The translations under genes were made by a program, and so were the position numbers. From a virus (Duplodnaviria > Heunggongvirae > Uroviricota > Caudoviricetes): a DNA stretch of 64,000 nt. Under the pieces are notes generated by a model that saw only the letters and a program-made list of their open reading frames with translations, was not told the origin of the DNA and searched no databases. Within the stretch, counting starts at the first letter, position 1. Each line of letters opens with the position of its first letter. The stretch lies in IMG/VR virus record IMGVR_UViG_2913177423_000001, positions 19,415-83,414 of that record; one strand, given 5' to 3'. Shown here one piece after another: positions 7,135 through 19,687 of this stretch.

Positions 7135-7526
7135 TGTACGAGACTACAAAATTAAGCATTCATGAAGCCACCAATATGGAGTGGAATATCGTCACCTGTA
7201 AGATTGTATCGTGTAATGCTGCGCGTACTGATGCAGGCCATAAGAGCACGATAACAGGCTACATGGTAATGGCTTATAGGGGATTGAGAGTTCGCTTTAT
7301 CTGGAAAGCTCGGCAATTGACACCATTCAGAGAGCCGTCAATGCCATTAGAGGTAGAACAGGATTATTTAAGCCTGCCGGAAATAGACGGTGCAACGCTG
7401 GTGGATTCTGATGGTCGTAAGGCTGATTTTGAAGTCAGCTTAAAGGTGGCGCAGGCCGTAATTAATAACTCACGTGGTAAGTGGATCGCTAAGGTAAAAC
7501 ACGTCGTTCGCTTATCTCGCTGGTAA
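7134..7526 (+). CDS. hypothetical protein, 130 aa
   Basis: ATGA stop-start overlap with the upstream gene; no motif recognised. Confidence 0.65.
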   Translation: MYETTKLSIHEATNMEWNIVTCKIVSCNAARTDAGHKSTITGYMVMAYRGLRVRFIWKARQLTPFREPSMPLEVEQDYLSLPEIDGATLVDSDGRKADFEVSLKVAQAVINNSRGKWIAKVKHVVRLSRW

Positions 7527-7557
7527 TGTTAGATAAATGGAATTAATTTTCTAATAT
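7526..7557. promoter_or_regulatory. overlapping inverted pair of operator-like 17-mers
   Basis: ATGTTAGATAAATGGAA (plus) overlaps the reverse complement ATATTAGAAAATTAATT. Sits between the stop at 7526 and the gene at 7635. Confidence 0.55.
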
Positions 7558-7634
7558 AGCTAACTTTTTGCCAGTCTATACAGAAATAACATTCTCATTA
7601 TCATCCCCTCGGTCATTTCCTGCCTGGGGGATTA

Positions 7635-8027
7635 ATGGAGCATATCAGCAGCGCAGAAATTGCGGATATCATGATTAGGGCTGACTGCTATCTGACAGTC
7701 ACCGAAATCACCACTCTCGCTAAAGAAAAATATCCTCACCTTCATGTTTCACGCGTAAGTGTAACCAACATCATTCGGCATTTTGTGCGGTCAAGCCGAG
7801 CTATTTGTGAGCTTGATGATCGTGTTTACCCACGGAAATACTGGTTGCATGGCCTGAACGGATATCAGTTCAAGGTGCGCGGGCGTACCCCTGAATACGG
7901 CAGTTTGCTGGTTAAAAACTGTAGCAGGAAGTCTGCCGAACTGGCGCGACAAGAGCAGCGCGAGCTGGTGGACATGGCTAATAAGCTGTGGAATGCCGCA
8001 GTTAAAAAGCGTGGTGTTGCTTTATGA
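7635..8027 (+). CDS. putative late-gene activator (positional analogue of P1 Lpa)
   Basis: Small gene directly upstream of pacA and behind an operator pair, as lpa/Op86 is in P1. Assigned by synteny only; no sequence motif recognised. Confidence 0.4.
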   Translation: MEHISSAEIADIMIRADCYLTVTEITTLAKEKYPHLHVSRVSVTNIIRHFVRSSRAICELDDRVYPRKYWLHGLNGYQFKVRGRTPEYGSLLVKNCSRKSAELARQEQRELVDMANKLWNAAVKKRGVAL

Positions 8028-9388
8028 GCCTGGTTAATTGGGAAGAGCACCGCGCCAAATTTATAGCGTTGCGTGAAGAAAAAGGGATCACCGTAAAGGA
8101 ATACTGCGAGCAACACGACCTTAGCTTCAATACCGCCAGAAAGCATCTCAATATGAAAAAAAATGAGGTGCGGTCGCAGGTGAAGACTACAAAAAAAAGC
8201 ACCAAATCACCTGAAAAAAAACGGGCAGGAAGAGCAAAAAAAAGGCCAGAAGAGGGTACAGAAACAACAAAATTTACAGAAACTGACAATTCACAGAGCG
8301 GAAGTTCTTTCCGGAGCATGCCGAGAAAGAAAACTTCGGATCATAAAAATAACGACAATAATAACAATGAGATAAAAGAATCTGTCAGGAGATCATTGCG
8401 CGAAAAAATGGCGAAAATGATCCCCGCCGAAGATAAATGCGCCTCAAAAACCGAGGGATCTTCAGCAATGATCCCTGGCGGTGCTGTGCAGCGTGCCACG
8501 TTGCCCACTACGAGTGTGGCTCGCGACATGATGAAGAACGGCGCAGAAGAGCACCTGCGGTTAGCAATTCAAATGGCGCAAGAACGCGCACTTCAGTACC
8601 AAAGCATTGTTGATCAGGAGGCCGAACGCCTACAGGCGGAGATAGACGCCCTGGGTGATGAACAGCCAGAAGGAATGCACCCTGGGCAGCGACTTCTCGG
8701 TCTAATCAGTGACGCGGCCTACTACATGAACGATTTTATCAGTAGGTTGGCAGCGATATATCAGTCCGAACAAAAGCTGCGACAGGGTGATGAAAAACTT
8801 CGTCAGGGTGCTCGCCAGCAAGCATTCAGAGAGGCCGAGGCCAGAGAAAAACTCGAATTAGCACGCCTACAGGCCGAACAGCGCGGCAAAGAGATTGAAT
8901 ATCGAATTGGCGCTGACGCACGCGCAGCCAGAGTTATCGCCGCCGCTATACGTATGCGTGAGCGCGAGGAACTGGACGATATCGGTGTTGCTGAATACAT
9001 CGAGCGTCAGGGTGTCAGTGTCCCGGCTATCCTCGCGGCGCGCGCGGCAAAAGCTATCGATCTTCTCGAACCGCCAGTTTCTGACATCAATGATGTTGAT
9101 GATGAACAGCTGGACAAAGAGGCAAGGGAGTATGCATTGCTTCAGGCAAACCATTCTCAATGGCTGGCAGAGCGCCGGGCAGATGTGGCTACCATTGTTG
9201 AAGACCTGGGGTGCGGAGATTACGACAGCAATGGCGAGCGTAAGGCTGGGGAATTCGAGGCCAACGACGAAGAGTTAGATATTGACCCTTCGGCAACGGC
9301 TGAAATTTACGGTGATTATGATGCATCAGACGTAGGGTATGACGCCGGAGATGATGATATCGCGATAGAACCTCCGGAGGACGATTAA
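8024..9388 (+). CDS. pacA: PacA-like small terminase / pac-recognition subunit
   Basis: N-terminal HTH-like segment (ITVKEYCEQHDLSFNTARKHL), Lys-rich linker and acidic tail. ATGA-type coupling on both sides; sits directly upstream of the large terminase, as in P1. Confidence 0.7.
   Translation: MSLVNWEEHRAKFIALREEKGITVKEYCEQHDLSFNTARKHLNMKKNEVRSQVKTTKKSTKSPEKKRAGRAKKRPEEGTETTKFTETDNSQSGSSFRSMPRKKTSDHKNNDNNNNEIKESVRRSLREKMAKMIPAEDKCASKTEGSSAMIPGGAVQRATLPTTSVARDMMKNGAEEHLRLAIQMAQERALQYQSIVDQEAERLQAEIDALGDEQPEGMHPGQRLLGLISDAAYYMNDFISRLAAIYQSEQKLRQGDEKLRQGARQQAFREAEAREKLELARLQAEQRGKEIEYRIGADARAARVIAAAIRMREREELDDIGVAEYIERQGVSVPAILAARAAKAIDLLEPPVSDINDVDDEQLDKEAREYALLQANHSQWLAERRADVATIVEDLGCGDYDSNGERKAGEFEANDEELDIDPSATAEIYGDYDASDVGYDAGDDDIAIEPPEDD
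8339..8473. promoter_or_regulatory. candidate pac site: cluster of five GATC (Dam) sites inside pacA
   Basis: GATC at 8339, 8391, 8419, 8457 and 8470 within 135 bp (contexts GGATCAT, AGATCAT, TGATCCC, GGATCTT, TGATCCC). P1 pac is a cluster of TGATCA/G hexamers inside pacA. Confidence 0.35.
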
Positions 9389-10896
9389 TGGCTGGCGGGC
9401 GCAAGATTAAATGCGTCACCAGCGATCCACGCTGGCGCGATTGGGTAATCAAATACCGCTACAACTTTACCAAGGCTGTTATTGATATTTTTGGATTGTT
9501 TCCCTCACCTCAGCAGCAGGAGATTATCCAGTCCGTACAGCAAAAAGGGAGCAGAACCACTGTTACCTCTGGTCACGGTACAGGGAAATCGTCGTTAACG
9601 GCTATGTTGTTGCTGATTTATTTGATTCTGTTCCCCGATGCCCGTGTCATCATTGTTGCTAACAAGATAGGCCAGGTTAAAACAGGCGTATTCAAATACG
9701 TTAAACAGTATTGGGCGAATGCAGTTAAGCGTCACGGGTGGTTACAGACCTATTTTGTCCTGTCTGACACCATGTTTTATGAACGTTCCCGCAAAGGGAT
9801 CTGGGAAGTTCTCTGCAAAGGTTATCGACTCGGTAACGAAGAAGCACTGGCGGGGGAGCACGCGGCACATTTGCTTCTAATTCTGGATGAAGCATCAGGT
9901 ATATCTGATAAAGCGATCGGCGTAATGACTGGCGCTCTGACTGAAGAAGATAACCGAATGTTGATGCTATCCCAGCCAACAAGGCCAAGTGGTTATTTCT
10001 ACGATTCGCACCATTCTCAAGCTAAAACCCCAGACAACCCGAAAGGGATCTGGACAGCAATTGTTCTTAACTCAGAAGAATCACCGTTCGTCACACCACA
10101 ATTCATCAGGCAGAAACTCCTGGAATATGGCGGTCGCGATTCTATTGAGTACATGGTTAAGGTGCTTGGTCAGTTCCCTCGGGAGATTAACGGCTATTTG
10201 CTTGGTCGTGATGAATGCGATCGCGCAGCGCGGCGCAAGGTGTTGTTGGAGAAAAACTGGGGATGGGTGGCAACAGCTGACGTTGGTAACGGGCGAGACA
10301 AGTCAGTTCTTAATATCTGTAAAGTGTCTGGTCACCGGGAAAAGCGGCGTGTTGTTAACTTTAAGATAATGGAAATGCCAGGGACTATGGACCCGCTGGC
10401 TTTTGCTGACTTTATATACAACGAATGCACGCCGGATAAATACCCGAATATTACAATCGCGGTTGACGCTGATGGTTTTGGTTCAGATACCTGTGCGCAG
10501 TTGGTGCGCCGTGGTGCTAATCCGGTACGTATTCGGTGGGGGAAACCCATGTTTTCGAACAAAGACAAGGAGCGTTTTGTTAACCAGCGTGCCTACGCAA
10601 ATATTATGGCTCGTGATGCCATAAAGTCAGGCCGTATGCGTATAGACAGTGACCCTAAAACGGCAGAGCAAGCGTCAAAAATCCCTTTTTTACTGAATGA
10701 AGAAGGGAAGATGGCGATGATGCGCAAAGAGCACATGCGGCAAAAGCTAAACATCAAATCGCCTGACCGATGGGATACCTACTGCTTCACTATGCTGGTG
10801 GACTATGTGCCTGCAAATGAAGATATCGGTGCGGAAATGGCTACCTTCCGCGACCAGGTTCTTGCAGACATAGAAATGCCGGATCTGGATATATAA
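9388..10896 (+). CDS. pacB: PacB-like large terminase subunit (ATPase plus nuclease)
   Basis: Walker A SGHGTGKSS, Walker B LLLILDEASG, 502 aa; TAATG overlap with pacA. Confidence 0.85.
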   Translation: MAGGRKIKCVTSDPRWRDWVIKYRYNFTKAVIDIFGLFPSPQQQEIIQSVQQKGSRTTVTSGHGTGKSSLTAMLLLIYLILFPDARVIIVANKIGQVKTGVFKYVKQYWANAVKRHGWLQTYFVLSDTMFYERSRKGIWEVLCKGYRLGNEEALAGEHAAHLLLILDEASGISDKAIGVMTGALTEEDNRMLMLSQPTRPSGYFYDSHHSQAKTPDNPKGIWTAIVLNSEESPFVTPQFIRQKLLEYGGRDSIEYMVKVLGQFPREINGYLLGRDECDRAARRKVLLEKNWGWVATADVGNGRDKSVLNICKVSGHREKRRVVNFKIMEMPGTMDPLAFADFIYNECTPDKYPNITIAVDADGFGSDTCAQLVRRGANPVRIRWGKPMFSNKDKERFVNQRAYANIMARDAIKSGRMRIDSDPKTAEQASKIPFLLNEEGKMAMMRKEHMRQKLNIKSPDRWDTYCFTMLVDYVPANEDIGAEMATFRDQVLADIEMPDLDI

Positions 10897-12149: not shown

Positions 12150-12166
12150 TCCTAATTTTCTAACTT
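12150..12166 (-). promoter_or_regulatory. operator-like 17-mer AAGTTAGAAAATTAGGA overlapping the rox-like site
   Basis: Word-family member; overlaps the left arm of the recombination site by 6 nt. Confidence 0.45.
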
Positions 12167-12192
12167 TAGATAATTGGCATTATTTAAAGTTA
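12161..12192. other. rox-like recombination target (14-bp arm, 4-bp spacer, 14-bp arm)
   Basis: TAACTTTAGATAAT-TGGC-ATTATTTAAAGTTA. The arms are inverted repeats with one mismatch (G at arm position 9). Equals the reverse complement of the D6 rox site as I remember it, except for that base. Lies 150 bp upstream of the recombinase gene. Confidence 0.8.
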
Positions 12193-12201
12193 GTATATAA
12201 T
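12174..12201 (+). promoter_or_regulatory. sigma70-like promoter overlapping the rox-like site, pointing at the recombinase gene
   Basis: TTGGCA (12174-12179), 16-nt spacer, TATAAT (12196-12201). Two GATC sites follow at 12204 and 12213. Confidence 0.4.
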
Positions 12202-13373: not shown

Positions 13374-13390
13374 GATTAAATTTCTAACAC
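13374..13390 (-). promoter_or_regulatory. operator-like 17-mer GTGTTAGAAATTTAATC
   Basis: Starts 1 nt after the recombinase stop codon and upstream of the 13448 operon. Confidence 0.5.
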
Positions 13391-13447: not shown

Positions 13448-13792
13448 TTGCAGAGTCAAATCACGGAATCAAGACGCTTTAAGGTTGATGGTTACACCGT
13501 AACCTTCGCCGCTGGTGTTAAGAACAGTCATGCTGTCGTTGTATTTGGCATCATGACCGGACTTGAGGCCGTCCCTGTGTTTACCCTCGAAAAAAACTGG
13601 CGAAATCTGGAGGAAGCGGAAAGCTACGTCCGGAGAGTAACCATCGCTGCCGCCGAAAAACTCCTGTCCCACTATCAGGAAAATTATCGCACTATGGTCG
13701 AGAAGATTAATCTCGCTTTCACTCGCCCCACTACAGGCTTTATCGCCCCGGAGACTAATGCAGGTCGCTATCCTGCAAGGGGGCGTCGGTGA
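13448..13792 (+). CDS. hypothetical protein, 114 aa
   Basis: TTG start preceded by GGAGGG; first gene of a tightly packed plus-strand operon. Confidence 0.55.
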   Translation: MQSQITESRRFKVDGYTVTFAAGVKNSHAVVVFGIMTGLEAVPVFTLEKNWRNLEEAESYVRRVTIAAAEKLLSHYQENYRTMVEKINLAFTRPTTGFIAPETNAGRYPARGRR

Positions 13793-14265
13793 AAAATTAT
13801 TACCCATCTCTGAATTGTTACCCGTCTTCGTATCCGGAATTGTCCGGGAAGCTGTTAGCTCTATTGGCTAAATCACCAACTGAATGGTTTAGGCCAGTCG
13901 TTATCAATCCGCACTTCCTGGATTACGGATCTGTTCGCACTCGTAACGAACTCAAAAACCTGCTGGCGCATGGATTCATTCGACATCGCGCCGGGAAAGG
14001 CTATCAGTTAGCGATTGCGCCAGAAGAGGCCGTGCGGCTATTCGCATATCGTGACAGCCAGACAAAAGCGCGGGTAATAGCTCAAATACTTCATAACGGC
14101 AGCACCTATGCCCGCCAGTTTGGCGGCGACACGTCGCAGTTCTTGCGGGCTGTGCGATCGCTGGAAGAACAAGGAGTTATTGAAAGTTCCTGTCTTCCTG
14201 TTCCTACCGTTCCACATATCAAACGTCGGGTTTACACCTTCACGCAGAGAGCAAAAAAACAATGA
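13789..14265 (+). CDS. hypothetical protein, possibly winged-helix DNA binding
   Basis: GTGA overlap with the upstream gene; two segments look wHTH-like (weak). Confidence 0.55.
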   Translation: MKNYYPSLNCYPSSYPELSGKLLALLAKSPTEWFRPVVINPHFLDYGSVRTRNELKNLLAHGFIRHRAGKGYQLAIAPEEAVRLFAYRDSQTKARVIAQILHNGSTYARQFGGDTSQFLRAVRSLEEQGVIESSCLPVPTVPHIKRRVYTFTQRAKKQ

Positions 14266-14756
14266 TTTACGTAAAAGTGAAACGCCTACATCCGGCAGCG
14301 AAACTTCCAGCTTATGCCACTGCCGGATCGGCGGCGATGGATTTTGAGGCTGTTGAAATAACACCGTGCGTCGATAGCAATGGTGCAATTTCCTCAAGCT
14401 GGTGGGTGCATACCGGGCTGGCTATGGAGATCCCGCCCGGCTGGTGTCTGAAACTCTATCCGCGTTCCGGATTGGGCTGCAAAAAACATACTCGCCTGGC
14501 TAACTGTGTAGGAATTATCGACTCCGATTATCGCGGTGAAATCATGGCAAAACTGATTACTGATCCCGGCGGTGAAGGCGTTTGCCTCAAGCCAGGAATG
14601 GCGGTCATGCAAGGCATTTTTGAGCGTGTTGAACAAGTCTCTCTTGTCGAAGTTGAGGAACTCAACGAAACGGAACGTGGTGCTGGTGGCTTTGGTAGCA
14701 CATCAGAAGGCCGCTTTGAAATTAAGCGTTCACCGCTTCAGTACGAAAAGTTATAA
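14262..14756 (+). CDS. dut: dUTPase (trimeric Dut family)
   Basis: Motifs AGSAAMD, GIIDSDYRGE and RGAGGFGST. Confidence 0.85.
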   Translation: MIYVKVKRLHPAAKLPAYATAGSAAMDFEAVEITPCVDSNGAISSSWWVHTGLAMEIPPGWCLKLYPRSGLGCKKHTRLANCVGIIDSDYRGEIMAKLITDPGGEGVCLKPGMAVMQGIFERVEQVSLVEVEELNETERGAGGFGSTSEGRFEIKRSPLQYEKL

Positions 14757-14770
14757 GCAGAGGGACAACT

Positions 14771-15457
14771 ATGAAGGAAAAGCTTTTGAAGACGCTCCCT
14801 GAGTACAAATACCACGGAACCATTCGCGCATCGAAAATCAAAAAGATCAAGCCTATTGGCGGATTAATTCCTCTCTGGGGTGATATTGAGGTCACCGAAC
14901 CAAAAGGGGTAACGATTCGTGTTGATTTAATGTTTTTACAAAAATACCGACCACAAATTGGCGGGTATTTGGTCGTTCATGAGGACGGATATTTGTCCTA
15001 TTTATCAGAAAAAACATTTAAAGAGGGCTTTAGTCGAATTGATGACATCTCAGAAAATGAAACAACAGTCATCATTGCCGATGACAAAGGCATGATGATT
15101 AATCTTGCCGGGATCGTATCTATTTATGCTGATGACATCACTAACCAACAAGAAGAAATCGACCTTGAGGCAGCCGACTTTTCTGACGCGCTGATGTGGC
15201 TGAAGGATGGCAAGAAAGTTGCTCGACGCGGGTGGAACGGCGAAAACCAATTCTGCTGGCTGGTTCCTGACAAACAGGGCGCTTCAAGACTAACCCCTAT
15301 AAAACATGCCGCAAGCGGAGAGCTTGAAATCAATTTCGGCTCGCCCCTTGCTCCTTATGGAGAGCATTTCACTTTGAAAAATGCACAAGGTGTCTTTCTT
15401 CCGTGGCTACCTTCTGTCGGCGACCTGCTGGCATGTGACTGGTTTGTAGTGGAGTGA
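14771..15457 (+). CDS. two-domain protein with C-terminal DUF2829 (Tad2-like) module
   Basis: C-terminal FSDALMWLKDGKKVARRGWNGENQF...PWLPSVGDLLACDWFVVE is a textbook DUF2829 pattern; the N-terminal ~135 aa is unrecognised. Confidence 0.8.
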   Translation: MKEKLLKTLPEYKYHGTIRASKIKKIKPIGGLIPLWGDIEVTEPKGVTIRVDLMFLQKYRPQIGGYLVVHEDGYLSYLSEKTFKEGFSRIDDISENETTVIIADDKGMMINLAGIVSIYADDITNQQEEIDLEAADFSDALMWLKDGKKVARRGWNGENQFCWLVPDKQGASRLTPIKHAASGELEINFGSPLAPYGEHFTLKNAQGVFLPWLPSVGDLLACDWFVVE

Positions 15458-15463
15458 TTTGAC

Positions 15464-16237
15464 ATGGAAAGCACCAAAACAACTCAATACCGCTTGCGTA
15501 ATGGCCTGCTGGTGGCTGTTAACGCCGACATGTCACTGCCGTTTGACACGATAGAACGCACTATCATGACGTATCTCGGCTTTAATGAAGAGCTGAATGA
15601 AGAGCATGGCGTAGCTATATGGAGTGATGCAGACAGCGGCGTTCGTCGTTACATCACTGCCAGAGGCAAAGACTACTCTCTGGAAGAACTGTTTACCCTT
15701 GCGCAGTCTTTCGAATGTGTAGCATTGGACCTGTTTAATGATCCTGCTATAGCGCAACGACTTATCCGCGAGCTTGGGCTGTCGGTTACCCCAATTATCT
15801 TTAAAAATGGCAGCCTGACTGGCACATGGCGCGTAGAGCGCATCTCAAACTACCTTCCATATAACCGCCAGTTAAACGGGGTAATTTCCGGCGTCAATCA
15901 GCCTGTAGCGTGTGAAAACGCAAACCTGGTTGTCGCTGTTTTGGCAACTGCATGTCGCGTTATTGGTTTGACTAAACAGGCATTTATCCATTTTCCCAAT
16001 GGTGCAGAAGGTGGCGTAGAAATTATCGCGTGTGATTTCGAATTTACCTGGATGCTTCGTGAATATCTGGACCGAACAGTGTTCCGCGCCGAAGAACTGG
16101 ATCTGTATATCACGTCAACGATTCCTGATGATGTGCGAGCTGAAGCAATCGCTACAGCCAGAGCGAAATGCCGTGCGTCGATTGCAGAACAAGCCAAAGA
16201 AGAAGTTACAGTTAAGGAAGTGGCAGATGGTAACTAA
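15464..16237 (+). CDS. hypothetical protein, 257 aa
   Basis: ATG ORF in the operon; its 3' end overlaps the next gene's ATG at 16227. Confidence 0.65.
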   Translation: MESTKTTQYRLRNGLLVAVNADMSLPFDTIERTIMTYLGFNEELNEEHGVAIWSDADSGVRRYITARGKDYSLEELFTLAQSFECVALDLFNDPAIAQRLIRELGLSVTPIIFKNGSLTGTWRVERISNYLPYNRQLNGVISGVNQPVACENANLVVAVLATACRVIGLTKQAFIHFPNGAEGGVEIIACDFEFTWMLREYLDRTVFRAEELDLYITSTIPDDVRAEAIATARAKCRASIAEQAKEEVTVKEVADGN

Positions 16238-17321
16238 GAGCAATATTTATAAAGATCCGCGCTGGCTGTCGCTGGTGGAGAAATATAAAGACAATTGGGT
16301 ACTGGCAGCAAAAGAATTGTTTGATATTGATTTAAGCCACCAGCAACAACAAATTGTTGAAGCTATACAGCCCAATAATGCAAAAGCTACTGTCACCACT
16401 CCGCATGGGATCGGACGACCGCAAGTGCTTGCTGTTATTAGTACCCTTTATACGATTATGTATCCTGATTCCCGGACAGTAATTGTTTATCCAAAATCAA
16501 ATGCTTGCAAAAGAGGAATTGTTGCATATGTGTGGCAATGTTGGGAGGCATTGCTGAAAAAACAACCTTTTATCATTGAGTATTTTAAGGTCGGTGATAG
16601 CGGTCTGATGTTCAATGAATTTTGGGGAATGTGCTTTTGTAACTACCGCCTTAACTATGAAGATAGCATTGCAGGTCACTACGCCGACCATCTTTTATTC
16701 ATTATTGTGGATTCCGCACATATCAGCGATCGGGCATACAGTATTGTGTGGGCAAGCATGACTAGTGGTGATTCACGCATATTGCTCACTTCAATTCCGT
16801 CACCAGAGGAAATAGGCTTTTTTTATGATTCACATCATGGACGTGCTTTAGCTGAAGATAATCCGAGTGGTGTCTATAAAGCCATTAAGCTGAGTGCTGA
16901 GGATTCACCATTTATTACCCAAGAATATCTTGATCATTTTGCCGAAAGGTATGGCGGGCGAAATAGTGATGACTATCGTCGTATGATTCTTGGTGAGTTC
17001 CCTGGTATTAGGGAGGCTGTTCTTGAATCAGATATGCCGAAGACAATGCGCTTTTCGATGCCTGATGGTAGTGAATGGACAATGCCATTACGAGTGATAG
17101 CCCGGCATCATGCGCAGCACCACGCCAAAAAACATAGCGTCACGACATTAGAATGGTTGAAATCGCACACTATTCCACTCTTCACTGCAGATCACAATGC
17201 TATCGTTGAGTGGGCCAAAACAATTCCGTGGGAGCATGTCGCTGAATACGCTCACATGCTAAAACCGCCGAAAGACAGACACGAAATTAGCTGGCTGACA
17301 GCCGAAAAAATCATTGAATGA
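16227..17321 (+). CDS. paralogue of the PacB ATPase domain with degenerate Walker motifs and an unrelated C-terminus
   Basis: Colinear with PacB residues ~10-290 (DPRW, QQQxI, FYDSHH, DNPxG, SPFxT, YGGRxS, LGxFP). Walker A is TPHGIGRPQ (PacB: SGHGTGKSS) and Walker B is LLFIIVDSAH (PacB: LLLILDEASG). The last ~90 aa are His-rich and unrelated to the nuclease half. Confidence 0.75.
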   Translation: MVTKSNIYKDPRWLSLVEKYKDNWVLAAKELFDIDLSHQQQQIVEAIQPNNAKATVTTPHGIGRPQVLAVISTLYTIMYPDSRTVIVYPKSNACKRGIVAYVWQCWEALLKKQPFIIEYFKVGDSGLMFNEFWGMCFCNYRLNYEDSIAGHYADHLLFIIVDSAHISDRAYSIVWASMTSGDSRILLTSIPSPEEIGFFYDSHHGRALAEDNPSGVYKAIKLSAEDSPFITQEYLDHFAERYGGRNSDDYRRMILGEFPGIREAVLESDMPKTMRFSMPDGSEWTMPLRVIARHHAQHHAKKHSVTTLEWLKSHTIPLFTADHNAIVEWAKTIPWEHVAEYAHMLKPPKDRHEISWLTAEKIIE

Positions 17322-17330
17322 TATCAACAA

Positions 17331-17360
17331 AAAGCCCGCCTGGTCTGGCGGGCTTCTTTT
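17331..17360 (+). terminator. intrinsic terminator
   Basis: AAAGCCCGCC-tggtct-GGCGGGCTTCTTTT. Confidence 0.8.
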
Positions 17361-18952: not shown

Positions 18953-19687
18953 TTAATCAGCCTCCAGTGGCAATAACGCCTTAGCCATTTCATGAATCAG
19001 CATGGCATCAATGACGCCTAGCGTATGGCCCGGCTTAATCTTTAATGCGGCCTCAAGATAGCCTCTTTCCAGAGTGGTTTTTACGCTTTTCCTGGGCGCT
19101 TGTTGGGGACTATCCGGAAGATCCGGATGGTTGCCAGCCTCATAAGCTACCCGCAACCAGTGCATGAATGTTTCCGCAGACACACAACCACAGTCCACAT
19201 CGATTTTCCCGCGTTGCTGTTCCAGCCATTGCTCAAAATCTAACTTGCAAGCCTTACTTTCAAGTTCATCACCATTGAACTCGACTTTCTGCGACGCTAT
19301 GAGAGCGGCTTCGTACTGTTCGCGAGAGACAACTGACTGGTATTCATCGCTATCAAGGTCACGAATTGGAAGCTCAATCTCACGACAAAAATTCCGCCCA
19401 TAGAACTGGTCTTTTTTGTGGTCTGAGCCAAAAGCAAAAGTCGCGCATGGCGCCATTAAATTGACACTGAGTATGTGACAATAACTCATGCCATCAGGCC
19501 ATCCGCCGCACTTAGGCAACTCCTTCACTAATAAGTCGATCAGCTTCATTGTTTTACCATCTTTGCAAGTCGCCAAAGCCATTTGAGCAAGCGCCAATAC
19601 TTCATCTGCCGTATATCCAGCACCGTGACCATACATTTCTATTCGGGAAATAATCTCTGATATACGCTCTTTATTGATTCTGATCAT
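18953..19687 (-). CDS. hypothetical protein, 244 aa
   Basis: ATGA overlap with the upstream gene at 19684-19687. Confidence 0.65.
   Translation of the reverse strand: MIRINKERISEIISRIEMYGHGAGYTADEVLALAQMALATCKDGKTMKLIDLLVKELPKCGGWPDGMSYCHILSVNLMAPCATFAFGSDHKKDQFYGRNFCREIELPIRDLDSDEYQSVVSREQYEAALIASQKVEFNGDELESKACKLDFEQWLEQQRGKIDVDCGCVSAETFMHWLRVAYEAGNHPDLPDSPQQAPRKSVKTTLERGYLEAALKIKPGHTLGVIDAMLIHEMAKALLPLEAD

Follow-up and report, generated by a model that had tools for sequence, protein, structure and literature searches.

The 64,000-nucleotide stretch of DNA analyzed here (positions 19,415 to 83,414 of the IMG/VR virus record IMGVR_UViG_2913177423_000001), which we call the window and whose positions we use as coordinates, belongs to a D6-like Escherichia coli phage-plasmid. 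The product of its open reading frame (ORF) 16227..17321, which we term dPacB, is very probably a conserved, catalytically dead paralogue of the ATPase domain of PacB, the large terminase (TerL) of the same element. An initial annotation had described the protein as a degenerate copy of the TerL ATPase domain whose nuclease half is replaced and whose gene lies outside the packaging operon, and this core claim is supported by homology, a fold search, the loss of catalytic motifs and signs of purifying selection. In our view, dPacB should be filed as a TerL-derived pseudo-enzyme rather than as a terminase. Searching the literature for dead or decoy paralogues of the terminase turned up no description of the dPacB family, and dPacB and its relatives define an undescribed family of pseudo-enzymes.

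The relationship to PacB is clear at the level of sequence. BLASTP aligns residues 7-259 of dPacB with residues 10-264 of the window's own PacB, a live large terminase of 502 residues (9388..10896, plus strand) with intact GTGKS, DEASG and SQPTR motifs, with 96 identities over 258 positions (37%), 62% positives and an E value of 7e-61. The similarity, whose lack of significance the initial annotation had named as a refuting result, is far beyond chance; the colinear alignment with the N-terminal part of PacB is real, but it extends over about 258 residues rather than the ~290 first proposed. All of the landmarks that had been listed (DPRW, QQQxI, DxRxxIV, FYDSHH, DNPxG, SPFxT, YGGRxS and LGxFP) are found in the alignment. 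Among protein families, dPacB matches phrog_5902 (E = 1.7e-165) and the TerL family phrog_2 (E = 2.6e-9), and searches of Pfam and NCBIfam returned nothing above threshold. Alignment, an AlphaFold2 model and Foldseek together delimit an N-terminal TerL/PacB-like ATPase-fold domain comprising residues 1-259 (16227..17003, plus strand).

Within this domain, the catalytic signatures are eroded as the initial annotation had described. The Walker A remnant reads TPHGIGRPQ (16398..16424, plus strand) where PacB has SGHGTGKSS, so that in the window allele the lysine is replaced by arginine and the following serine by proline. The Walker B remnant, LLFIIVDSAH (16692..16721, plus strand), corresponds to LLLILDEASG in PacB; here the magnesium-binding aspartate has become valine and the catalytic glutamate has become aspartate. 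The SQPTR coupling (C) motif appears as SIPS(P), with the serine and proline retained and the glutamine, T198 and R199 lost. The FYDSHH motif (16821..16838, plus strand) opens the stretch best conserved with live PacB, residues 197-259 of dPacB. Taken against the features of a large terminase, dPacB lacks Walker A, Walker B, the C motif, the nuclease domain and the packaging-module context, and it retains the fold. From its sequence, we infer that dPacB cannot hydrolyze ATP and probably does not bind it; a protein predicted to be inert in this way must act by binding something.

We observe the same losses across the family. They were assessed in an alignment of 70 sequences and, position by position, in 12 dead and 52 live sequences (PacB numbering unless stated). 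GxGK[ST], [DE]E and S/G-Q/N-P-T are present in every live relative and lost in 14 of 14 short relatives. In the live set, the Walker A lysine and the Walker B glutamate are each present in 100% of sequences, the Walker B aspartate in 92%, T198 in 88% and R199 in 75%, and H158 is invariant. In the dead relatives, the position of the Walker A lysine is occupied by R, Q, H, E, T, M, C or I, and the two Walker B positions that are valine and aspartate in the window allele bear other residues in other dead members; P0027, a truncated form of the Klebsiella relative P0315, likewise has no Walker A lysine. The dead family has lost S61, G62, H63 and K67 of the P-loop, D167, E168, S170 and G171 of the Walker B stretch, and T90, A91, Q96, H158, G182, T198 and R199 elsewhere. 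Some alleles contain a Lys-Thr/Ser pair shifted by one position (GIGQKT, GIGHKS, GVGTKT), which is not conserved family-wide.

Other positions are common to dead and live sequences: the Q-motif glutamine (Q40, 100% in both sets), G64, G66 and G156, and further on G202-F-Y, H208, H209, S232-P233, G248-G249, Y255, G261 and F263. In dPacB numbering, F199 and Y200 are invariant, and H203 and H204 are present in 92% of dead relatives compared with 63-71% of live ones. A further set of residues is conserved in the dead family only (dPacB numbering), namely W13, L16, W24, A27 and L36 in the N-terminal helices, together with W106, H155, D182, L186 and R251.

Structure prediction, which the initial annotation had put forward as a check, agrees with this assignment. 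The AlphaFold2 model is of moderate quality, built from a shallow alignment with a predicted local distance difference test score (pLDDT) of 72.6, and is weak at the P-loop and at residues 190-225. Its best matches in the PDB by Foldseek are large terminases (T4 gp17, Sf6 gp2, D6E and the P74-26 ATPase domain), and the Avs3-bound PhiV-1 terminase is also among the structural matches. Sequence searches of the PDB with a family profile, a tail profile and IsaA gave no match.

The nuclease half of PacB is replaced, as first described, by a tail with no significant similarity to the PacB C terminus, although this tail is 105 residues long (residues 260-364; 17004..17318, plus strand) rather than ~90 and has many relatives. 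These form a very large family of ~100-residue phage proteins that has neither a name nor a Pfam model; at E ≤ 1e-3, at least 1482 clusters of free-standing proteins from phages and prophages match. The dPacB tail is 30-39% identical to stand-alone members. The family corresponds to the C terminus of phrog_17928, and dPacB retains its invariant proline, alanine, phenylalanine and three tryptophans (columns P26, A31, F58, W68, W74 and W95; 118 sequences) as well as the near-invariant MPD..S.W and T.PLF (columns M17, P18, D19, S21, W23, T54, P56 and L57; 118 sequences). Unlike the stand-alone proteins, the dPacB tail is fused to a dead ATPase domain. The window tail reads TIPW in place of NNMNW and has no GW.NG; the loss of these two elements and a His-rich helix (HHAQHHAKKH) are specific to the E. 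coli clades. The tail is predicted to fold, with a pLDDT of 85.5, into a β-hairpin, four helices and two strands, and no nuclease-like structural match was found for it.

The genomic contexts of the tail family vary. In lambdoid prophages, stand-alone tail genes lie just after the DnaB or O-P replication genes and before ninB, and in Cronobacter phage JK004 such a gene follows ban. In Xanthomonas phage SAC, the tail forms the C terminus of a 470-residue protein whose gene adjoins those for a recombinase, an exonuclease and a single-stranded DNA-binding protein (SSB). In P0315 (366 residues), the tail domain is N-terminal to the dead ATPase domain, the reverse of the order in dPacB, and the existence of this opposite fusion speaks for the two modules being functionally linked. 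Even so, many versions have no tail (P0007, P0009, P0012, P0013, P0016 and P0052). The idea that they are accompanied by a separate tail gene was rejected, as none lies within 7 kb, and the P0007 type looks like a deletion derivative. Downstream of ban in JK004 (L005, 4718-5297), we observe a 96-residue ORF and a stand-alone tail-domain gene, and a contig related to JK004 (L035, 6007-7095) carries a full dead-PacB-plus-tail gene at the same place; the difference suggests deletion or fission of the ATPase part.

The family is widespread in phage-plasmids. A word-indexed protein search recovered only 7-10 close relatives, and an exhaustive search was needed for distant ones; it gave 838 matches, most of them ordinary terminases of 450-570 residues. 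Among the remainder are short or truncated relatives of 244-268 residues (P0009, P0012, P0013, P0016, P0043 and P0052) and P0014, a protein of 444 residues with a dead ATPase domain and a different C terminus. At the DNA level, the dPacB gene matches 44 plasmids, 34 of them at ≥95% identity. A scan of IMG/VR found 33 loci with full-length homologues, all 33 intact. They comprise clade A, the window type (97-99% identical); clade B (64% identical); clade C (52% identical), found in P1-like elements between ssb and hxr; and clade D, a single copy at 37% identity. Nei-Gojobori estimates of the within-clade ratio of nonsynonymous to synonymous substitution rates (dN/dS) are 0.116 for clade A and 0.231 for clade C, and constraint is seen in the N-domain and the tail alike. 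IMG/VR scans for P0009 and P0013 gave no match, and P0016 had no plasmid match. As to the survey of D6-like genomes proposed at the outset, of 753 plasmids in PLSDB with a PacB homologue, 163 (22%) carry a full-length dPacB, always together with pacB in the plasmids listed. D6 itself has no such gene, and P1 lacks it as well; in D6, isaA is immediately followed by pdcA-doc-phd and in P1 by IS1 and isaB.

The dead lineage, which we find in Escherichia, Salmonella, Citrobacter, Klebsiella and Leclercia, is old and probably of single origin. In a neighbor-joining tree, a single clade lying outside the live PacB-type sequences unites 13 of 14 dead members, with moderate bootstrap support (97/200). 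The fourteenth, P0043, is placed separately among live sequences; this metagenomic protein of 268 residues is a second, apparently independent, dead PacB-like short protein. The identity of dPacB to PacBs is 33-39% whether these are of the D6 type, the P1 type or another, compared with ~56% between the D6-type and P1-type PacBs. A recent duplication of the resident pacB was rejected on the basis of this equal distance and the placement outside the live clade. In P0014 (L094, 7001-8332), the dead ATPase domain is joined to a different C-terminal domain of ~180 residues, of unknown function, and the gene is surrounded by genes for PAPS (3'-phosphoadenosine-5'-phosphosulfate) reductase, a queuine-tRNA-ribosyltransferase-like protein, DUF551, Ead/Ea22, UmuC and SRAP proteins. 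Public records mislabel dPacB as "terminase large subunit" (GenBank MH422554.1, 16006-17100) or give it as "hypothetical protein", and in PHROG 5902 it is grouped together with genuine PacB.

The reading frame itself is well defined. The gene runs on the plus strand from the ATG at 16227 to a TGA ending at 17321, and the ORF list and translation agree with the initial annotation in position and in length (364 residues). The Shine-Dalgarno sequence AAGGAAG, read directly at 16214..16220 (plus strand), lies 7-8 nt 5' of the ATG, and the start of the gene overlaps the stop of the preceding isaA-like gene by 11 nt (ATGGTAACTAA); the two genes are translationally coupled. A longer ORF call of 429/438 residues from the GTG at 16032 was rejected because homologues of all clades start at the position of ATG 16227, which has a ribosome-binding site. 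The nr entry P0001 (438 residues) starts ~74 codons too early, inside isaA.

As first described, dPacB is the last gene of a tightly packed six-gene operon that includes a dUTPase and a DUF2829 (Tad2-like) protein and lies outside the packaging operon. The gene order in the window is lpa, pacA, pacB, c1 (minus strand), cre, two small ORFs, dut, the Tad2-like gene, the isaA-like gene, dPacB, a hairpin terminator, and the convergent humD and hot. The operon opens with the two small genes of unknown function (114 and 158 residues; 13448..14265, plus strand), whose ORFs overlap by 4 nt, which are conserved in D6-like relatives and which have a GGAGG 5-6 nt 5' of a TTG start. They are followed on the same strand by dut (14262..14756; PF00692, E = 3.9e-14), the Tad2-like gene (14771..15457; C-terminal domain PF11195, E = 1.1e-20) and, directly upstream of dPacB, the isaA-like gene (15464..16237; 257 residues, phrog_2326). 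The ORF of pacA, the small terminase or pacase A subunit (8024..9388, plus strand), is labeled "DNA pacase A subunit" in a 99%-identical plasmid. Between pacAB and dPacB lie c1, cre and five other genes, a setting distinct from the packaging-module context of TerL. A strong intrinsic terminator hairpin at 17332..17355 has a 9-bp stem with 7 GC pairs (arms AAGCCCGCC-loop-GGCGGGCTT), preceded by an A-tract and followed by a T-tract. It sits between the convergent dPacB and humD-like genes and is likely a bidirectional terminator shared by the two.

Placement at the distal end of a non-packaging, early-type operon (ssb, ban, ref, or cre/dut/Tad2-like/isaA), and never with pacAB, is common to every lineage we examined. 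In clade C (L001), the order is ssb, isaA, dPacB, and a P1 C1 operator with one mismatch lies directly 5' of ssb, as annotated for P1. In clade D (L035), dPacB follows ban, and there are two operator-like sites 5' of that operon. In a phage-plasmid of Citrobacter, a tail-less member has a 4-nt overlap with the stop of the gene for a Ref-family nuclease. In the window, no site matches the P1 C1-operator consensus. An asymmetric motif, TTTTCTAACA (extended form roughly AATTAATTTTCTAACAC), occurs there at 11 sites against 0.65 expected: 862, 1905, 3155, 3311, 11978, 12156, 13380, 26091, 26748, 38104 and 46165. One copy, ATTTCTAACA (13380..13389, plus strand), lies in the 75-nt gap between cre and the six-gene operon ending in dPacB. 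Other copies lie 19 nt before c1 and beside the -35 element of the cre promoter, flank ref on either side and precede an rdgC-like gene. This pattern parallels that of the P1 C1 operators, and we regard the motif as a candidate D6-type C1 operator. No enrichment was seen for a crude pattern built on a single P1 late promoter, which speaks neither for nor against late expression.

The distal position in early-type operons, the operator matches at ssb and ban and the candidate operator in the window lead us to predict that dPacB is an early accessory gene controlled by the prophage repressor and made well before PacA and PacB. The cre promoter, TTGGCA-16-TATAAT at 12174-12201, is a near-consensus σ70 promoter; a candidate operator lies beside its -35 element and a partial inverted copy (AAGTTAGTA) covers the spacer and the -10 element (12156..12196), which suggests that cre is repressor-controlled in D6-like elements.

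The N-domain of dPacB behaves as an exchangeable allelic cassette between close relatives, with isaA not co-varying. Comparing the window with the clade B locus L017, DNA identity is 90-98% in isaA, falls to 38-78% across ~16202-16950 (the N-domain) and returns to 90-96% in the tail. Another locus, L084, shows the reverse pattern, with 83-95% in the N-domain, 60-70% in isaA and no tail. The GC content of the N-domain is 0.415-0.43, against ~0.48-0.50 around it. The isaA-like protein is 47% identical to P1 IsaA and 94% identical to D6 orf113, and its gene precedes dPacB in E. coli clades A, B and C and in the P0007 type. An obligate partnership with IsaA was rejected: a 94%-identical isaA occurs beside a 64%-identical paralogue, and isaA is missing from clade D as well as from the P0012 and P0014 types.

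The surroundings of the gene are themselves variable. P1-like elements are known to vary at the isaA-IS1-isaB site (PMC9603915, PMC6906374). In P1, the segment with IS1 and isaB occupies the place where related P1-like elements (L001, isaA at 7208-8002) carry the dead-PacB gene. IsaA of P1 ("IS1-associated") is a protein of unknown function that is non-essential in P1 by CRISPR interference; isaA is dispensable for P1 lytic growth (PMC10695390), which says nothing direct on dPacB. In the clade B loci L016 (7099-7813) and L017 (6472-7186), ~700 extra bases, probably one gene, lie between the dPacB stop and humD; they are absent from the window. The Tad2-like protein of the window (14771..15457; 228 residues) has a variable N-terminal half, is only 59-68% identical between otherwise near-identical plasmids and is truncated in D6. 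With its PF11195 domain (Thoeris anti-defense 2), it is a likely anti-Thoeris sponge candidate. The P1-like locus L021 likewise has a Tad2-like gene ahead of isaA and dPacB, and the Dar antirestriction operon adjoins the P1-like dPacB site.

As to what a dead terminase domain might do, we favor a reading in which dPacB acts as a non-catalytic, early, binding-based mimic of the terminase ATPase domain, a package that, taken whole, we consider plausible at somewhat short of an even chance. In this scheme, dPacB would be made early as a fold mimic of that domain and would engage the host sensors that recognize it, namely STAND (signal transduction ATPases with numerous domains) proteins of the Avs2, Avs1 and Avs3 type, and Upx. 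Because it would offer no ATP-Mg active site such as Avs2 and Avs3 reportedly read, detection of the real terminase might be blunted later in infection, and exchange of the N-domain cassette could be the trace of an arms race. Counter-defense as the specific mechanism is possible, if on the unlikely side. We favor it because of the apparent early expression, the Tad2-like and antirestriction neighbors, the patchy distribution, the allelic cassette exchange and the loss of the ATP-Mg features that sensors read. As further accessory or counter-defense neighbors that fit the mimic, we count dut and the genes listed above around P0014. Of the three roles suggested in the initial annotation (a decoy for Avs-type sensors, a regulator or poison of packaging, and an adaptor for PacA), early-operon placement and anti-defense neighbors somewhat favor the decoy. 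The most detailed version, an early decoy that occupies or mis-assembles Avs1-3 or Upx receptors and whose swappable N-domain alleles track sensor diversity, is doubtful.

Published work on these sensors counts in favor of the mimic. For EcAvs2 and Upx, the ATPase domain of TerL is by itself enough for activation; EcAvs2 contacts ATP bound to the terminase via a bridging ATP, and SeAvs3 senses residues of the active site together with ATP (PMC13601566). In the same study, the T4 protein vs.8, a stand-alone TerL-ATPase paralogue, occupies the same Avs2 pocket and is discussed as a possible anti-defense protein (PMC13601566).

Several observations weigh against the mimic reading. vs.8, the one characterized stand-alone paralogue of this kind, activates EcAvs2 and does not inhibit it (PMC13601566). 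Upx is reportedly independent of the catalytic residues of the terminase (PMC13601566), so a dead domain could be a trigger. Accessory genes generally accumulate at the 3' ends of early operons, which makes the evidence from neighborhood weak. PADLOC gave no match at E ≤ 0.1 for dPacB, the IsaA-like or the Tad2-like protein, with a library of defense rather than anti-defense systems. With respect to early expression, no C1-operator match was found in the Citrobacter ref locus, and the candidate D6-type operator is identified by where it lies and by a core that agrees with the P1 operator at 7/10 positions. The stretches best conserved with live PacB, the N-terminal arm and residues 197-259, could equally be surfaces that bind PacA, the portal or PacB, and the usual neighbors of the tail family are replication and recombination genes.

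In the strongest alternative, dPacB is a modulator or poison of packaging whose dead domain binds PacA, PacB or the portal through surfaces still shared with PacB. Such a protein might delay or regulate the phage's own pac cleavage and motor assembly, or form a mixed, non-functional terminase with competing P1/D6-like phages or satellites. We consider this unlikely, though a serious contender. The strongest conservation with live PacB falls in the N-terminal arm (DPRW..Y..QQ) and in residues 197-259 (FYDSHH..NPxG..SAEDSP..YGGRxS..LGxFP) rather than in the active site, and the residues specific to the dead family include W13, L16, W24, A27 and L36 in the N-terminal helices. The N terminus of TerL is a region that binds the small terminase in other phages, which counts in favor of this alternative. 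Allelic cassette exchange would suit a specificity determinant, and a prophage-encoded packaging blocker, TERi of Listeria (10.1101/2025.02.27.640495), offers a precedent. Against it, dPacB lies neither in nor near pacAB in any lineage; 78% of P1/D6-like plasmids package without it; and its roughly equal distance from all PacB types (33-39%) shows no tracking of the resident PacB. Operons that are apparently repressor-controlled argue against exclusion expressed from the lysogen, and a poison of the motor ring would harm its own phage too unless an immunity factor exists.

The genes around dPacB and around the tail family suggest a different role, as an accessory to DNA replication or recombination. 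Here the dead ASCE (additional strand, catalytic E) fold and the tail would bind DNA or a replication or recombination protein during early replication, with no link to packaging or immunity. The neighbors that recur are ssb, ban/DnaB, the Ref-family nuclease, cre, dut and humD/hot, and the tail domain itself is found after DnaB or O-P in lambdoid prophages, after ban in JK004 and beside the recombinase, exonuclease and SSB genes of SAC. Such positions are also classic insertion sites of accessory genes, however, and Pfam and PDB searches revealed no DNA-binding or nuclease signature. The frequency of tail-less versions means that the tail cannot carry a core function, and we regard this role as quite improbable.

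That dPacB is a still-active nucleoside triphosphatase with a non-canonical site is very unlikely. The shifted K[ST] of clades B and D and the full conservation of Q40 in dead and live sequences are the points in its favor. The window allele, clade C and the P0007 type contain no lysine at all in this loop (GIGRPQ, GIGETS and GIGRAP), and the Walker B aspartate is lost in all dead members compared except P0052, which has asparagine in place of the catalytic glutamate. H158, T198 and R199 are lost as well, and no alternative residue is conserved there across the dead family. Finally, although all catalytic motifs and the nuclease domain are gone and D6, P1 and the majority of relatives have no such gene, the view that it is a pseudogene in decay, which the initial annotation had named as a finding that would overturn it, or a neutral remnant of a duplicated pacB is contradicted by the 33 of 33 intact copies, the dN/dS of 0.12-0.23 in both domains, the good ribosome-binding site and translational coupling, the age and diversification of the lineage over five genera and the independent fusions to the same tail domain in both orders, and is hardly credible.

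The significance of a terminase-ATPase mimic would lie in the nature of its model. The large terminase is regarded as an essential protein that bacterial sensors can reliably target, since the phage cannot easily change it, and if the mimic reading is true, dPacB is a counter-defense built from the phage's own conserved, "immutable" target. A conserved dead version of this terminase's ATPase domain could be the way in which a phage responds to terminase sensing, or else a packaging regulator of a new kind. About one-fifth of the P1/D6-like phage-plasmids of E. coli and Salmonella, which are common in the clinic, carry dPacB, and the fusions in both orders tie the family to a very abundant family of small phage proteins of unknown function. 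For annotation, the consequence is that dPacB is filed publicly as a terminase large subunit or lumped with PacB in PHROG 5902. The mimic reading is directly testable with existing co-expression assays for Avs2, Avs3 and Upx.

dPacB differs from each of the proteins closest to it. With PacB, encoded in the same genome, it shares a homologous ATPase fold, the N-terminal arm, the Q motif, the G-x-G of the P-loop, FYDSHH, the SP and YGG motifs and the LGxFP end. It differs in lacking the Walker A Lys/Ser, the Walker B Asp/Glu, SQPTR and the nuclease, in not lying beside pacA or the portal gene, and in being present in only ~22% of relatives. T4 vs.8 (PMC13601566) is likewise a nuclease-less paralogue of its phage's own TerL ATPase domain, confined to one phage lineage and of unknown function. 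As described, vs.8 keeps Walker A and B and activates EcAvs2 (PMC13601566), whereas the dPacB family has lost both motifs; dPacB is moreover of the PacB type rather than the gp17 type and often has an extra tail domain. The TERi system of Listeria, comprising TerI and anti-TerI1/2 (10.1101/2025.02.27.640495), is a conceptual precedent as an accessory function of a temperate phage aimed at the terminase complex. By its description, however, TerI has 65 residues to the 364 of dPacB, is not described as terminase-like, is expressed constitutively, including during lysogeny, and is accompanied by dedicated self-immunity proteins.

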